DNA of 64,000 bases from an uncultured Chroococcidiopsis sp. (GTDB taxonomy: Bacteria > Cyanobacteriota > Cyanobacteriia > Cyanobacteriales > Chroococcidiopsidaceae), in NCBI GenBank assembly GCA_964248365.1, contig CAXTYC010000018.1:32001-96000 (forward strand), read 5' to 3'. Position numbers and translations under genes: made by a program. The notes under the pieces were generated by a model. The model was given only the letters and a program-made list of their open reading frames with translations, did no database searches and was not told the origin of the DNA. Within the stretch, counting starts at the first letter, position 1, and every line of letters begins with the position of its first letter. Shown here piece after piece: positions 34,581 through 40,485 of the stretch.

Positions 34581-35639
34581 ATGAAAGCACAGGTATTTCG
34601 AGGTGTCAATCGGTTAAGTTACGAAGAATTACCAATTCCGACCCTTGCTCCCGATGAAGTTTTGGTACAGGTGCGAGTGGTGGGTTTGTGTCAGTCCGAT
34701 ATCAAAAAGATTCGTTATCCTCTCTATGAACCACCGCGCATTTTTGGACATGAAACAGCTGGGGTAATTGCCGCTGTGGGAGAGGAAGTATCTCGTTGGC
34801 AAGTGGGACAGCGCGTAGTCGTGATGCACCACATTCCTTGTATGCGCTGTAGCTATTGTCTCAACGACAATTTCTCCATGTGTGATGTCTACAAAAATAT
34901 CTCGACAACAGCTGGTTTTACTCCCAGTGGCGGCGGCTTTGCTGAGTATGTCAAAGTTCCGAGTCATATTGTCCGCAACGGCGGTTTAATTCCTATCCCC
35001 GCTGAAGTCAGCTTTGAAGAGGCTAGTTTTGTCGAGCCTACTAATTGTTGCCTCAAAGCAGTCAAAAAAGCCTCTATTGCCCCAGGACAAACAATTCTAG
35101 TCACGGGGGCAGGACCAATTGGTTTGATGTTTGTCATGTTGGTGAAATATTTCGGTGCAAGAGCAATAGCCACCGATCTCTTGCCTTCTCGCCTTGAAAA
35201 AGCCAAGGCTTTGGGGGCAGAAGCTGCTTTTGATGCTAGAGATCCTGATCTACCAGCAAAAATACTTGCACTTACAGATGGTATGGGAGTTGATACTACT
35301 GTGCTTGCTGTTCCCAGTGAAAAAGCTTTCTTCCAAGCACTCGATTGTACTCGTAAAGGAGGCAAAATTCTCTTTTTTGCTGAGTTTCCTGAACAGGTGC
35401 AAATTCCCATTAACCCTAACATTCTTTACCGCCGTGAAATTAACTTAATGGGTAGCTACAGTTCATCTTTCCGCCTGCAAAGTCTTGCCGCTGATATTGT
35501 ATTTAATCGCCGCATTGATGTGCAAGCTTTAATTAGCGATCGCTATTCGCTGCAACAGTTGTCAGCAGCTGTAGAACTTGCTATTAATCCCAGCCCCAAC
35601 ACTTTCAAAATTCTCATCTATCCTCCACAAGGTGGGTAG
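34581..35639 (+). CDS. Zinc-dependent (MDR) dehydrogenase
   Basis: GLCQSD, GHE, CxxCxxC and GAGPIG. Confidence 0.9.
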   Translation: MKAQVFRGVNRLSYEELPIPTLAPDEVLVQVRVVGLCQSDIKKIRYPLYEPPRIFGHETAGVIAAVGEEVSRWQVGQRVVVMHHIPCMRCSYCLNDNFSMCDVYKNISTTAGFTPSGGGFAEYVKVPSHIVRNGGLIPIPAEVSFEEASFVEPTNCCLKAVKKASIAPGQTILVTGAGPIGLMFVMLVKYFGARAIATDLLPSRLEKAKALGAEAAFDARDPDLPAKILALTDGMGVDTTVLAVPSEKAFFQALDCTRKGGKILFFAEFPEQVQIPINPNILYRREINLMGSYSSSFRLQSLAADIVFNRRIDVQALISDRYSLQQLSAAVELAINPSPNTFKILIYPPQGG

Positions 35640-35758: not shown

Positions 35759-36130
35759 ATGGACGCATCCTCTCCTACGCGGGGGCAACTAGAACGCACC
35801 CTATCGCAGCGGATTCAAGCATTATATCGGACTCAGCTTGAGCATCAACCAAGTAAAGTGACTTGTCAACTTTTCGATGAAAAAATTGCTATCATTTTGG
35901 AGGATTCTATTACCCAAGCAGAGCAACTTCTGTTTGAAAATGGTCAAGAAGAATTGGCAGAAAAAGTAAGATCTCAGTTAGACGAGGCACTTCAGCCACA
36001 ACTAAGAGAACTGATTGAGGAGGTAGTCGGAGTAGATGTAGTTGACATATTAAGCAATGCAAAATTAGCAACAGGTCGTACAGCTACAGTTGCGATTTTG
36101 GCTCATCCACCTCAAGTCCGCAATCTATAA
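35759..36130 (+). CDS. DUF2294 (MpsC-like) protein, copy 1
   Basis: GQLERTLSQRIQALY...HQPSKV.C...LEDSIT..E..L...TGRT. Confidence 0.8.
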   Translation: MDASSPTRGQLERTLSQRIQALYRTQLEHQPSKVTCQLFDEKIAIILEDSITQAEQLLFENGQEELAEKVRSQLDEALQPQLRELIEEVVGVDVVDILSNAKLATGRTATVAILAHPPQVRNL

Positions 36131-36459
36131 TAGAGGCAAAATGTTGGATCTTAGATTGAGAGTCTTGGGTTTTTAATTTTATATTTTAGATTTTGGATGA
36201 TTGATTACTCCAAAATATCTTTAACACCTAACACCCAACCATCTAACATCCTGATCGTAAAATGCCTGATGGAAATAAATTCCTTAGAGGTGAGATGTTG
36301 AAACTTTGGATTAGAACGTTTGTAAGGCGCACATTCTTAGAAGTTAAAATCGCCCTTGACAATTGAAACCTTTAAGCTGGCATTTTAAACCTACACTGCA
36401 CTGCAAACCTTCAAACCTTCAAACTTTCTCACTCCACACTCAGATTGACCCAAATCATT

Positions 36460-36891
36460 CTACTCAAAAGACTTTATTTCAAAGATGTATTTACGTATAA
36501 TTGTTTCTATATCCTCAATGTTGTAAGGCTTTGTCACACAGTCAACACACCCTGCTACTAGAAAGCGTTCTTTGTCTTCTACCCTTGCCATAGCCGTAAC
36601 AGCAACAATTGGAATATTTTTAGTTTGTGGATCATGCTTCAAATTACAGCTAACTTCTATACCACTCATATCAGGCAACATCATATCCAAAAGAATTAAA
36701 TCAGGTTGACGATTTTTTGCCAACGATATTGTGGTTTCACCATCAGCAGCAGTAATAAATGAACACTCCATTAGTTCTAGTAATTGAGTTAGTAACTGCA
36801 AATTATCTTCATTGTCATCAACAACTAAAACTAGAGGCTGATTTATATTTTTCTGAGTATCGGTATTAAAGCGGCGCTGTAAATTCATCAT
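36460..36891 (-). CDS. Single-domain response regulator (DivK/CheY-like), copy 1
   Basis: VVDD, LLDMMLP, VTA and KP. Confidence 0.93.
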   Translation of the reverse strand: MMNLQRRFNTDTQKNINQPLVLVVDDNEDNLQLLTQLLELMECSFITAADGETTISLAKNRQPDLILLDMMLPDMSGIEVSCNLKHDPQTKNIPIVAVTAMARVEDKERFLVAGCVDCVTKPYNIEDIETIIRKYIFEIKSFE

Positions 36892-36983
36892 TGATTTGTT
36901 GGGGGTAGTCGTAGAATTATGAGTTTCTCGGTTGCAAGAGTTAGCAACTGCTGCAATTAGGTTTCACAAGTGTGGTTTCTACG

Positions 36984-37038
36984 ACGAGGCATTCCCCAAG
37001 CGGCGTATCCGGCGCTTGTAATGAATTGGCTCGTAATT
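36984..37038 (-). promoter_or_regulatory. Conserved 55-nt structured leader motif, copy 1
   Basis: 46/55 identical to 38476-38530. Three-helix hairpin on the minus strand. Confidence 0.7.
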
Positions 37039-37536
37039 GTTCCTCTAGGTTACTTATCCTTTGTGACGTTCACAAAACAATATAGCAAGCTAGCAAGAGC
37101 AAGTAACTTATTTGAATTTTACATTAAATTAGTCAGCGCTCACAGCATATTAAATAACCAAGCGGGGAAAGGGGGCAAGGGGGAAGGGAAGTAGGGTGGG
37201 CATTGCCCACCTAATACCAGAAGTATTTGCATTAAATTATCGCCTGGATGCTCTTGCCTCCTACGCCTGCTTCCAAGGCTAAAGATAGAGGCAAGAGCCT
37301 CCTACGCCTCGTTCCAAGGCTAAGCCTTGGAACCAAAATAGAGGCTCTAGTCTCTTTTAAATACTGGTATTGGTGACATATCTGTTCCCTTCTTCCGAGC
37401 TAGAGGCTGGTAACGAGGTGTCATAATTTATTCTCCTAAAGAAATACCTCTTTAGGCTGTTTAAGGCGATCGCCTCGCCTGCTAATGTCAAAAAAAATCT
37501 TTAGATTTTGCTGCTTGATTGAGAAAACAAACTTTT

Positions 37537-37911
37537 ATGGATAAATATTCAGTATTAACTCCTGAGCAGCTAGAATACAACCTCTCACAGCGATTGATAG
37601 TGCTATACCAAACCAGCCTGGGACATCAACTCGGTCACGTCTCTTGTAAGCTGGTTGATAAGACAATTACAATTGTCGCCGAAGATTCTATTACTTGTCT
37701 GGAGCAATTTCTGCTCAAGAATAATCAATACGAACTAGCAAAGCAAGTTAGATTAACCCTACACAAAGTTTTTGAACCAGATTTAAAGTTTTTATTTGAA
37801 GAAGTGGTAAATGTACCTGTCTTAGATGTAATCTGTGATAGTGTCTTCCCTACTGGTCGTACTAGTATTGTTGCTGTTTTAGCCGTTCTGCCTGATATCG
37901 TTTCTAGTTAA
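37537..37911 (+). CDS. DUF2294 (MpsC-like) protein, copy 2
   Basis: EQLEYNLSQRL..LY...LGHQ...EDSIT..E...TGRT, paralog of 35759-36130. Confidence 0.78.
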   Translation: MDKYSVLTPEQLEYNLSQRLIVLYQTSLGHQLGHVSCKLVDKTITIVAEDSITCLEQFLLKNNQYELAKQVRLTLHKVFEPDLKFLFEEVVNVPVLDVICDSVFPTGRTSIVAVLAVLPDIVSS

Positions 37912-37988
37912 ATATATATCTTTATAAAATATATCTTTATAAATTAGCAATTAGCTCTTAACAATTATGCTCCCACTAGCTGCGTGCA

Positions 37989-38420
37989 TCAACAGCAAGT
38001 CAGAGAATATCTTGCACTTAAATGGTAATGGATGACAGCTTCTAGATCGTCTAGCATATACGGCTTGCTAACATAATCATCGCACCCTGCTAAAAATAAG
38101 CGATCGCGGTCTTCAAGTCGTGCTAAAGCAGTGACAGCAATGACTGGAATAGTCATAGTTTGCGGGTTTTGCTTGAGTTGGCGCACTACTTCTATGCCAC
38201 TAATATCCGGCAACATCACATCTAATAAAATTAAAGCTGGCTGTTGCTCTAGTGCTAAATTGAGAGCCTGTTGACCATAAGTAGCAGTTATGACTGAGCA
38301 GCTTAAAGGTGTGAGGACTTCCGTTAGTAGTAATAAATTGTCTTCATCATCGTCTACAGCTAAAACCAGAGGCTGATGAATAATTCTGGATTGCTGATTA
38401 CTCTGAAGTATAAGTTCCAA
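37989..38420 (-). CDS. Single-domain response regulator, copy 2
   Basis: AVDDD, LLDVMLP, VTA and KP. TTG start with a GGAGG SD. Confidence 0.93.
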   Translation of the reverse strand: MELILQSNQQSRIIHQPLVLAVDDDEDNLLLLTEVLTPLSCSVITATYGQQALNLALEQQPALILLDVMLPDISGIEVVRQLKQNPQTMTIPVIAVTALARLEDRDRLFLAGCDDYVSKPYMLDDLEAVIHYHLSARYSLTCC

Positions 38421-38475
38421 TTCTAACCTCCGTTAAGGGATAGTCAAACAGTAATCTCCTCATCCCCAAAAAATA

Positions 38476-38530
38476 ACGAGGCATTCCTCAAGCGGCGGTA
38501 AAGGCACTTGTAATGGATTGGCTCGCAATT
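38476..38530 (-). promoter_or_regulatory. Conserved 55-nt structured leader motif, copy 2
   Basis: See copy 1. The two stem substitutions give G-U pairs on the minus strand. Confidence 0.7.
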
Positions 38531-38766
38531 AACTCCTTGGCTAATGCTGGCGCACTAATAGGAAAAATAGCACCAGCGAAGTGCTATAAATTACATTCCC
38601 ATGTAATTCTAACCAACATTCAGCCAAAAAGTGAAGTTTTTGTAAATTAATTACATAAGATTCCGGTCTATCTGAAGTTATCGTAAAGATACCCTAAATT
38701 ACCTAGCTATGTCTGTATGCATCTTTACAAATATTAGCTTAAACTTAAGCTTTTTTTAAGGAAATA

Positions 38767-38833
38767 AAAGGGAAAAGGGAAAAGGGTAAAGGGTAAAGGG
38801 TAAAGGGAAAAGGGTAAAGGGAAAAGGGTAAAG
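38767..38833. repeat. Heptamer tandem repeat (STRR-type) AAAGGG(A/T). Similar arrays throughout, e.g. 10430-10540, 14550-14700, 40287-40460, 45620-45690, 63950-64000
   Basis: Direct reading of the sequence. Confidence 0.9.
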
Positions 38834-38922: not shown

Positions 38923-40287
38923 ATGGCGATCGCTACTATAAATCCAGACTCTGGAGAAACGCTCAAGACGTTTGAACCACTGACCCAGTCAGAAATTGCC
39001 CAGAAGTTGGATTTGGCGCAAAGTGCCGAGAAGCAATACCGTCAGATTTCGATGGCGCAAAGATCCCAGTGGATGAATGCAACCGCTGATATTTTAGAGC
39101 AAGACAAAGAAAAATTTGGCAAGCTGATGACCTTGGAAATGGGGAAACCGCTAAAAAGCGCGATCGCAGAGGTAGAAAAATGCGCCTTGGTTTGTCGCTA
39201 CTACGCCGATCACGCAGCAGAATTTCTGGCTGATGTGCCAGTAAAAACCGATGCAAGCCATAGCTTTATTCGCTACCAACCGTTGGGTATCGTCCTGGCG
39301 GTGATGCCTTGGAATTTTCCTTTTTGGCAAGTATTCCGTTTTGCCGCCCCAGCGCTGATGGCGGGTAATATGGGATTACTTAAACACTCTTCCAATGTGC
39401 CGCAGTGTGCCTTAGCAATTGAAGATATTTTTCAACAAGCAGGTTTCCCCGATGGAGTATTTCAAACTTTATTAGTAGGATCAGAGCAAGTCGCTGCCTT
39501 AATTGCAGATGAGAGAGTCAAAGCAGCAACTTTGACCGGAAGTGAACCTGCTGGCGCAAGTTTAGCCGCCGCCGCAGGGAAACAAATTAAGAAAACCGTT
39601 TTGGAATTGGGAGGAAGTGACCCGTTTATTGTCACAGCAAGCGCCGATTTAGAAGCAGCTGTGACAACAGCTGTTGCAGCACGGATGCTCAATAACGGAC
39701 AATCTTGTATTGCGGCAAAACGGTTTATAGTAGAAGAGGCGATCGCCGACGCTTTTGAAAAACAGCTAATCGAGAAATTTGAAAAACTCAAAATAGGCGA
39801 TCCGATGCTTCCAGATACCGACATTGGACCACTCGCAACACCAGGTATTCTCAAGGATTTAGATCAGCAAGTCCAACAAAGTGTCAAGCTGGGAGCAAAA
39901 GTTTTGACTGGGGGACAACCTTTGTCACGTCCTGGTAACTTCTACCCGCCGACAATTCTTACCGATATTCCGGCTGGGAGTCCAGCCGAAAAGGAAGAAT
40001 TTTTTGGACCTGTGGCGCTGTTGTTTCGGGTAGCGGATCTTGATGCAGCCATAAAGCTGGCTAATGATTCACCATTTGGCTTAGGTGCAAGTGCGTGGAC
40101 GACAGATGAAAAAGAACGCGATCGCCTAATTTCTGAAATAGAGGCAGGAGCAGTGTTTATCAATGGTATGGTCAAATCCGATCCCCGACTGCCGTTTGGT
40201 GGCATTAAGCGTTCTGGATATGGAAGAGAATTAGGAATACTCGGCATCCATGAGTTCGTTAATGTTAAAACGGTGTGGGTAAGGTAG
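38923..40287 (+). CDS. gabD: Succinate-semialdehyde dehydrogenase
   Basis: MPWNFP, LELGGSDP, GQSCIA, EEFFGP and FGGIKRSGYGRE. Confidence 0.9.
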   Translation: MAIATINPDSGETLKTFEPLTQSEIAQKLDLAQSAEKQYRQISMAQRSQWMNATADILEQDKEKFGKLMTLEMGKPLKSAIAEVEKCALVCRYYADHAAEFLADVPVKTDASHSFIRYQPLGIVLAVMPWNFPFWQVFRFAAPALMAGNMGLLKHSSNVPQCALAIEDIFQQAGFPDGVFQTLLVGSEQVAALIADERVKAATLTGSEPAGASLAAAAGKQIKKTVLELGGSDPFIVTASADLEAAVTTAVAARMLNNGQSCIAAKRFIVEEAIADAFEKQLIEKFEKLKIGDPMLPDTDIGPLATPGILKDLDQQVQQSVKLGAKVLTGGQPLSRPGNFYPPTILTDIPAGSPAEKEEFFGPVALLFRVADLDAAIKLANDSPFGLGASAWTTDEKERDRLISEIEAGAVFINGMVKSDPRLPFGGIKRSGYGRELGILGIHEFVNVKTVWVR

Positions 40288-40485
40288 GGACTAGGGGCTA
40301 GGGGCTAGGGGCTGGGGAAAGGGAAAAGGGAAAAGGGAAAAGGAAACAATTATCAATTATCAATTATCAATTATCAATTGTTCATTGTTCATTGTTCATT
40401 GCTCCCACTCTCCCCTGATTCCCACTCTCCCCCTCTCCCTAGCCCCTAGCCCCTAGCAAGCGCCCCTAGTTAAGGAGAAAGTTAA

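Follow-up and report, generated by a model that had tools for sequence, protein, structure and literature searches.

A Leader Hairpin before Cyanobacterial DivK-like Regulator Genes as a Candidate RNA Target of the Neighbouring MpsC/DUF2294 Protein

The window analysed here is a 64,000-nucleotide (nt) stretch of the genome of an uncultured Chroococcidiopsis sp. (contig CAXTYC010000018.1, positions 32,001 to 96,000), in which a module made of a gene for an MpsC protein (DUF2294/YbcI, PF10057) and a convergent gene for a single-domain response regulator occurs twice. A hairpin with a core of 55 nt precedes each regulator gene. This hairpin defines an RNA family that is real and apparently undescribed, and for which there is a named candidate partner, MpsC, along with natural loss controls. 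The explanation that we prefer, and to which comparative sequence analysis leads us to give somewhat better than an even chance, is that MpsC would bind the leader hairpin and lock its outer helix, P1, against a competing helix, a putative switch that would set the translation of the regulator. An earlier note on this DNA had proposed that the single-domain regulators are preceded by a cis-regulatory leader that is structured, uncatalogued, and under selection, and this proposal is supported by covariation, by gene context, by a −10 box upstream, and by the lack of copies dispersed elsewhere in the genome. The elements on which the argument turns are the following (P2 being the inner helix).

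35759–36130, plus strand: MpsC/DUF2294 gene 1 (123 amino acids, aa), an open reading frame convergent with regulator 1, encoding the proposed binding protein (PF10057, E=4.5e-37)
36460–36891, minus strand: single-domain response regulator 1, a DivK/CheY-like receiver (PF00072, E=2.2e-26)
36984–37038, minus strand: core hairpin copy 1, with one C·C mismatch in each of P1 (arms 37023–37032 and 36986–36996) and P2 (arms 37011–37017 and 36998–37004)
37537–37911, plus strand: MpsC/DUF2294 gene 2, convergent with regulator 2 (PF10057, E=2e-25)
37989–38420, minus strand: single-domain response regulator 2, an open reading frame with a TTG start (PF00072, E=9.6e-24)
38476–38530, minus strand: core hairpin copy 2 (P1 arms 38515–38524 and 38478–38488; P2 arms 38503–38509 and 38490–38496)

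A Hairpin on the mRNA Strand

The two copies of the core are identical at 46 of 55 positions, as had been seen before, and lie 92 and 55 nt upstream of the regulator starts (the 93 and 56 nt given earlier are the same distances counted inclusively). Pfam and pairwise alignment confirm that the whole module is duplicated, with both MpsC proteins passing the Pfam cut-off and the two regulators sharing 68 of 121 residues. With the covariance model R1, which was built from homologues, copy 1 scores 70.1 bits and copy 2, which belongs to the training set, 68.5 bits. The phospho-site Asp, Thr, and Lys are invariant in the regulators (33 homologues), some of which are labelled DivK/CheY-like by their source annotation.

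The structure was examined in an alignment of 58 non-redundant copies out of 129 that are linked to a regulator; the three longest copies were excluded. Pairing is found in 95.0% of the alignment cells of these 58 rows, compared to 34–49% when the partners are slid and 89.7% after shuffling, a control inflated by related sequences. RNAalifold, unaided, recovers 14 of the 16 proposed pairs, and a metagenome set is 94.2% paired, being aligned to the model and hence leaning towards it. Particularly informative is one P2 pair, which among 111 distinct cores is C-G in 59, U-A in 44, U-G in 8, and C-A in none, with a search pattern that permitted C-A; in 60 metagenome cores, the same pair is C-G in 35, U-A in 23, U-G in 2, and again never C-A. 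Since U-G wobbles occur without C-A at this best-sampled P2 pair, the comparative evidence supports the motif being a hairpin RNA on the mRNA strand. Single-sequence folding is no more than moderately unusual and does not distinguish the strands (z = −2.1 and −2.3 for the minus strand; −2.7 and −2.6 for the plus strand).

P1 and P2 share a module in which RCCRNU is paired with ARYGCY, so that a C·C mismatch lies beside a C-G pair, and the two modules face opposite directions across a central loop. The size of this loop is constrained, with 40 of 77 leaders having 8/4 nt, and that of the apical segment is free (5–38 nt), with apical insertions of around 30 nt being tolerated. By eye, no pseudoknot or junction was seen in the alignments, and most conserved positions lie in ordinary helix. 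Much of the structure drawn in the earlier note survives comparison: RCGAG/CUCGU is retained as the outer helix and CAAGYG/CGCUUG as the inner one, five of the nine differences between the copies do fall in the apical loop, and it is the minus (mRNA) strand that has the G-U pairs. Its middle helix, CAUU/AAUG, is not conserved, as CAUU varies among the homologues; the CCAAU that it had left unpaired belongs to a CCARU that instead pairs with ARUGC (C·C, C-G, A-U, R·R, U-A); and the remaining differences, which it had split into two stem changes and two in internal loops, are three stem changes and one in an internal loop.

Two other readings of the motif were rejected. A leader peptide would not have core lengths in all three modulo-3 classes (43, 24, and 10 of 77), and a dispersed cyanobacterial repeat would not be limited to the two copies found by blastn, nhmmer, and the covariance model in the 5.58-Mb genome.

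Some leaders (30 of 148, compared to 5.9% of shuffles) have a third hairpin around 40–90 nt before the 55-nt core, again with a C·C beside a C-G (examples are L033, L037, L049, L078, L097, L113, L124, L218, L226, and L227); it is not intact in the window copies.

Distribution and Gene Context

An exact-pattern scan of 57 of the 64 parts of GTDB gave at least 123 loci, of which 109 are followed on the same strand by a regulator gene less than 450 nt away. The other 14 comprise a truncated locus, one with a short flank (its regulator was seen separately), one with an inserted frame, and 11 non-cyanobacterial matches, which lack the gene context and were rejected as homologues and taken as chance. 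Of the 65 regulator-linked GTDB loci whose flanks are long enough, 64 have MpsC. In metagenomes, 72 of 90 matches lie less than 450 nt 5′ of a regulator on its strand, and 75 of 90 pass the covariance model; among the linked GTDB and metagenome loci, the gene class downstream of the motif is always of this one type. BLAST searches of 61 related genomes gave matches in 22, a count that takes in the genome of the window and a few weak matches that turned out to be false. Named carriers include Microcoleus, Scytonema, Brasilonema, Fischerella, Chlorogloeopsis, Chroococcidiopsis, Aliterella, Pleurocapsa, Crinalium, Coleofasciculus, and Nodosilinea. On viral contigs, none of 28 pattern matches precedes a regulator, and these too were taken as chance; a plasmid collection gave no regulator or MpsC match. 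The earlier note had proposed collecting homologues and examining their covariation: the homologues lie mostly before regulators, and their covariation supports one hairpin on the mRNA strand.

The expectation that the motif would match no known Rfam family was borne out by a scan of Rfam 15: neither the window nor any of six homologous loci has a match at the gathering score, and the motif itself is covered by none at E ≤ 10. No description of the hairpin was found in the literature at the level of listings and abstracts; term searches of the main texts of PMC11109978, PMC8632094, and bioRxiv 10.64898/2026.10.21.760802 gave nothing relevant, with a listing in their supplements being possible.

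Two kinds of unusual locus were met. In L092 (Microcoleus), a frame that we take from its appearance to be transposase-like is inserted directly after the motif. In L052 and L073, the cyanobacterial module is found in records labelled Actinomycetota and Tatlockia, probably as a result of misbinned contigs.

Decay of the Hairpin Where MpsC Is Lost

Across 151 phylum-wide genomes, the motif is found in 15, MpsC in 18, and both in 14, numbers in which kin are not independent. The one genome with a motif match and no MpsC, G103, led to a comparison within its family (f7, 61 genomes), called Nostocaceae here on the basis of its named neighbours, where the regulator is present in 52 genomes and MpsC in 34. 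Of the 52 regulator loci, 51 were scored, that of G237 being read separately as L256. Twenty-six of the 51 form one clade (support 99/92) with no adjacent MpsC. Within this clade, the pairwise identity of the motif is 0.40, compared to 0.77 in a 16-member sister group with MpsC, whereas the two groups hardly differ in coding identity (0.77 vs. 0.74) or in that of the downstream flank (0.65 vs. 0.64). Only 1 of the 26 loci keeps both C·C mismatches, compared to 12 of the 16 in the sister group and 15 of all 23 with an adjacent MpsC. These comparisons of identity and mismatches are independent of the covariance model; with the model, no locus out of 20 in Nostocaceae genomes without MpsC reaches 40 bits, compared to 14 of the 23 with an adjacent MpsC. 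Six members of the MpsC-less clade do hold an MpsC elsewhere, always of a separate clade and mostly with its own regulator and a variant motif.

Similar losses are seen in the family of the window, where MpsC is present in 25 of 27 genomes and absent from G017 (98% complete) and G007 (72% complete). In both, the motif before the regulator is broken, and the regulator gene of G017 is still 84–86% identical to those of relatives with an intact motif. In a search with a cyanobacteria-specific MpsC profile that included a positive control, G017, G103, and G085 gave no MpsC and G007 only a weak match in a long frame. The order of G190 (three genomes) provided no further loss event. The motif can stay intact with MpsC on another contig (L275, 58.7 bits; L242, 41.9 bits; and also L026). 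Paralogous MpsC–regulator modules carry variant copies of the motif at the same position, and the extra regulator paralogues L265–L272 have no motif. These sequence comparisons show a one-way evolutionary dependence of the motif on MpsC, the simplest reading of which is that the RNA would need MpsC in trans and that MpsC would not need the RNA. The decay of the motif in the large Nostocaceae clade may explain its absence from Rfam.

Among the MpsC variants, the separate Nostocaceae clade (L245–L249, L261, and L264) is accompanied by receivers in which the first acidic pocket is altered (EQN or EKN for DD) and by variant motifs; in a third MpsC clade (L258, L260, L291, and L292), P1 is kept and P2 is altered.

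The Leader between Promoter and Start Codon

The remaining elements of the two window leaders are listed here.

36902–36907, minus strand: pyrimidine tract before the regulator 1 start codon, the alternative partner of the hairpin 3′ strand in folding predictions
36908–36985, minus strand: downstream hairpin P3 of leader 1 (arms 36977–36985 and 36908–36916; fold z = −4.1 over 36889–37038)
37116–37121, minus strand: predicted −10 hexamer of leader 1, at a position conserved among leaders
38427–38442, minus strand: start region of regulator 2, with a pyrimidine tract (38435–38442) and a Shine-Dalgarno-like GGAGG (38427–38431)
38468–38476, minus strand: U-rich run immediately after core copy 2, terminator-like and not general among leaders
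38606–38611, minus strand: predicted −10 hexamer of leader 2, at a position conserved among leaders

Of 84 non-redundant leaders (out of 157 copies), 58 have a −10-like hexamer 75–115 nt before the core, compared to 11 of 84 in a control window; the conserved box is located around 85 nt upstream. The TGCTAT(A/T)TT boxes that the earlier note had described as promoter-like do exist (37079–37087 and 38564–38572), and they are probably inside the transcript rather than part of its promoter because they are downstream of this positionally conserved hexamer. No mapped start in Fischerella was found in the portion of Table S4 of PMC5580265 that was examined, the table being one of selected genes.

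The core is separated from the start codon by mostly 30–110 nt. Folding predictions offer the 3′ strand of P1 a second partner, a pyrimidine tract whose end often lies a few nt ahead of a start codon. The energy of this alternative helix in 77 leaders is −7.68 kcal/mol with the leader's own sequence, compared to −6.81 ± 0.18 when leaders are swapped (a value that none of 5000 permutations brings down to that of the own leader) and −6.37 when the own sequence is shuffled. When the core is locked, the start region becomes more open in 38 and less open in 10 of 84 leaders; among those with a Shine-Dalgarno-like site (34 of 77), it is more open in 13 and less open in 4. Only 14 of 77 leaders have a U-run after the core (control windows give 2 and 4), so that control of translation is more likely than control of termination. 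The arms of P3 vary together in L010, L012, and L014, as judged by eye. A TTG start behind a good Shine-Dalgarno-like site is apparent in many regulators of the second type (window 38420 and homologues).

Binding by MpsC and the Rival Explanations

The proposed mechanism would run as follows. Transcription would start around 75 nt upstream of the hairpin, and the neighbouring MpsC/DUF2294 protein would bind this hairpin in the RNA, ahead of the gene of the DivK-like regulator. Two MpsC units would recognise the two similar C·C modules, which, by their restricted distance and inverted orientation, would suit a binder with two-fold symmetry. Binding would lock P1; if P1 were free, its 3′ strand would pair with the pyrimidine tract before the start codon. 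Whether MpsC would activate or repress translation is a guess, in which activation is slightly favoured because the folding models lean weakly towards a locked core with a more open ribosome site. Nothing in the analysis ties the signal of MpsC to CO2 or bicarbonate. Autoregulation by the receiver alone was rejected.

Several observations weigh against binding by MpsC or against parts of the mechanism. Much of the invariance in one alignment (A2) was imposed by the search patterns, and copies found by the covariance model alone show some drift. The losses amount to three events, one of which spans 26 genomes and another of which is in a genome that is 72% complete; in the upstream flank, too, the MpsC-less clade shows lower conservation (0.47 vs. 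0.56); and co-loss fits any shared pathway and not only direct binding. MpsC is present without a motif match in G060, G053, G054, G218, G214, G091, and G219, and 9 of the 23 Nostocaceae loci with an adjacent MpsC score below 40 bits, one being undetectable (L241) and another at 14.5 bits (L174); the motif has also decayed despite MpsC in L243, L281, and the second regulators of G144 and G237. As regards the competing helix, the effect is less than 1 kcal/mol and is found in 50 of 77 leaders, and a control with the leader's own upstream sequence gives −6.81 kcal/mol, the same as the swapped value. The direction of control is only weakly supported by the folding of the start region.

The earlier note had left the choice between a riboswitch-like and a protein-binding leader, and it is the second that is favoured over a metabolite riboswitch because the motif decays with the loss of the cognate MpsC while the regulator gene is conserved. 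In a riboswitch, the hairpin would be an aptamer for a small molecule or ion, with two pockets at the C·C mismatches, and MpsC would belong to the same pathway and be lost with it without ever touching the RNA. This is unlikely. In its favour are the compactness of the hairpin, the near invariance of its internal-loop nucleotides, the variability of its apical insertions, the competing helix close to the start codon, and the net acidity of the two window MpsC proteins (12 K+R vs. 19 D+E; 10 vs. 15), which also counts against binding by MpsC. Against it, only one type of gene is ever downstream, the motif decays after a protein is lost from genomes that retain the regulated gene, and the conserved positions are mostly those of an ordinary helix, with neither pseudoknot nor junction seen by eye. 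Another possibility, and a quite unlikely one, is that a different factor (a general RNA-binding protein, an RNase, or an MpsC–regulator complex) binds or cuts the hairpin and that MpsC acts indirectly. Such a factor would account for decay in the presence of MpsC (L241, L174, L281), and MpsC and the regulator subfamily do mostly co-occur; yet the regulator alone does not maintain the motif in the 26-genome clade, its paralogues L265–L272 lack it, and there is no reason to expect that a general factor would disappear together with MpsC.

A role as a separate small RNA, or as a released leader that titrates MpsC with control of the regulator being secondary, appears very unlikely. It is suggested by one organism (L400/L407:895–951), in which an intact motif of 58.7 bits adjoins two MpsC genes and a 46-aa frame stands in place of the regulator, a further point against the preferred explanation, and by the U-run after 14 of 77 cores. 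The other 63 leaders have no U-run, the spacing to the start codon is mostly 30–110 nt, and the competing helix points to the start region. Least credible of all, to the point of being highly improbable, is a DNA element such as a repressor operator or a cruciform. The sequence is indeed internally repeated and quasi-symmetric, it lies downstream of a promoter, and its strands taken singly fold about equally well, but at the best-sampled pair it wobbles to U-G and never to C-A (8 vs. 0, and 2 vs. 0 in metagenomes), and it tolerates apical insertions of around 30 nt.

Comparison with Known Systems

Leader hairpins bound by proteins are known from BglG, SacY, and LicT, with their RAT elements, and from HutP, and ANTAR proteins bind dual-hairpin RNA sites. 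Like the targets of BglG/LicT and HutP, the cyanobacterial leader is a hairpin with internal loops, and a dedicated protein whose gene is close by is predicted to stabilise it over a competing structure. Unlike them, it is mostly without an overlapping intrinsic terminator, it has C·C modules and no Rfam match, its candidate partner is a PF10057 protein encoded by a convergent gene, and its target is a signalling gene. Like the ANTAR sites, it offers two similar RNA modules suited to a dimer and tied to two-component signalling; unlike them, both modules are in one hairpin and inverted, and the regulator is a bare receiver that is the target and not the binder. Pfam finds PF10057 and PF00072 only in the four module proteins, with no CAT, HutP, or ANTAR RNA-binding domain. 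The cyanobacterial leader hence resembles a protein-bound leader and differs in the defining features of the BglG/LicT, HutP, and ANTAR families. With the cyanobacterial cis-regulatory RNAs and riboswitches of Rfam, it shares a 5′-leader position and a cyanobacterial range, but there is no match at the gathering score. LicT and SacY appear in the part of PMC3575810 that was consulted.

MpsC and Its Relatives in Other Phyla

The structure model of MpsC has a predicted local distance difference test score (pLDDT) of 90. Fold searches with this model gave nothing at E ≤ 0.001 in one and a best Z of 7.2 with no clear family in another, and the RbfA entry 8byv (KH type II/RbfA-like) is within the background (Z 4.9, root-mean-square deviation 4.1, 90 aligned). 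A sequence search of solved structures with MpsC found only a low-complexity designed repeat protein, and the ESM Atlas gave no usable match.

Model R1 gave nothing above 11.8 bits at 28 non-cyanobacterial MpsC loci (Actinomycetota and Verrucomicrobiota), and MpsC was not found in a sample of 121 genomes of Acidobacteriota. In four of these loci from other phyla (L302, L327, L328, and L330), a mismatched hairpin fused to an intrinsic terminator lies within around 200 nt downstream of mpsC. These hairpins resemble the cyanobacterial one in being uncatalogued (no Rfam match lies over them), internally mismatched, and next to an MpsC gene, with GAGCC as the 5′ arm in three; they differ in having a tandem purine mismatch and a strong terminator and in lying directly downstream of mpsC, and R1 is blind to them. 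Their pattern occurs 4 times compared to 0.13 in shuffles, a circular count given that the pattern was written from those same loci. In L303 and L304 (Actinomycetota), a long, structured-looking leader lies upstream of mpsC and is similar in both. In Staphylococcus aureus, according to the part of PMC6689103 consulted, mpsC lies past a weak terminator behind mpsAB, its deletion has no growth phenotype, and no function is given; the cyanobacterial MpsC is instead paired with response regulators.

Other Features of the Window

A zinc-binding dehydrogenase gene (34581–35639) flanks the module in the window and also in G041, G135, G144, and G237. Between regulator 1 and MpsC gene 2, the region 37245–37345 contains a 27-nt direct repeat (37256–37282 and 37297–37323) and a 15-nt inverted repeat, and heptamer tandem repeats of a type typical of cyanobacterial intergenic DNA are found at 38767–38829 and 40285–40457. 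One weak sequencing run has reads on 37765–37970 only.

Significance

MpsC/DUF2294 is a family found in several phyla and has no known function. A wider and more tentative proposal, to which we give slightly less than an even chance, is that it constitutes a new class of sequence-specific RNA-binding regulators, in which a cyanobacterial dimer would read the two C·C modules and switch the translation of the DivK-like regulator, each paralogue would have its own RNA variant, and in other phyla the family would act on terminator-linked leaders. The cyanobacterial hairpin offers a concrete test of MpsC/DUF2294 function, as it consists of a 55-nt RNA with two mismatch sites and has natural loss variants as controls. 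If a small ligand were to bind instead, the hairpin would be a new riboswitch candidate. If the proposal is true, it would reveal a post-transcriptional layer in the two-component signalling of cyanobacteria in soil-crust and rock-dwelling groups (among them Microcoleus, Chroococcidiopsis, Scytonema, and Fischerella).

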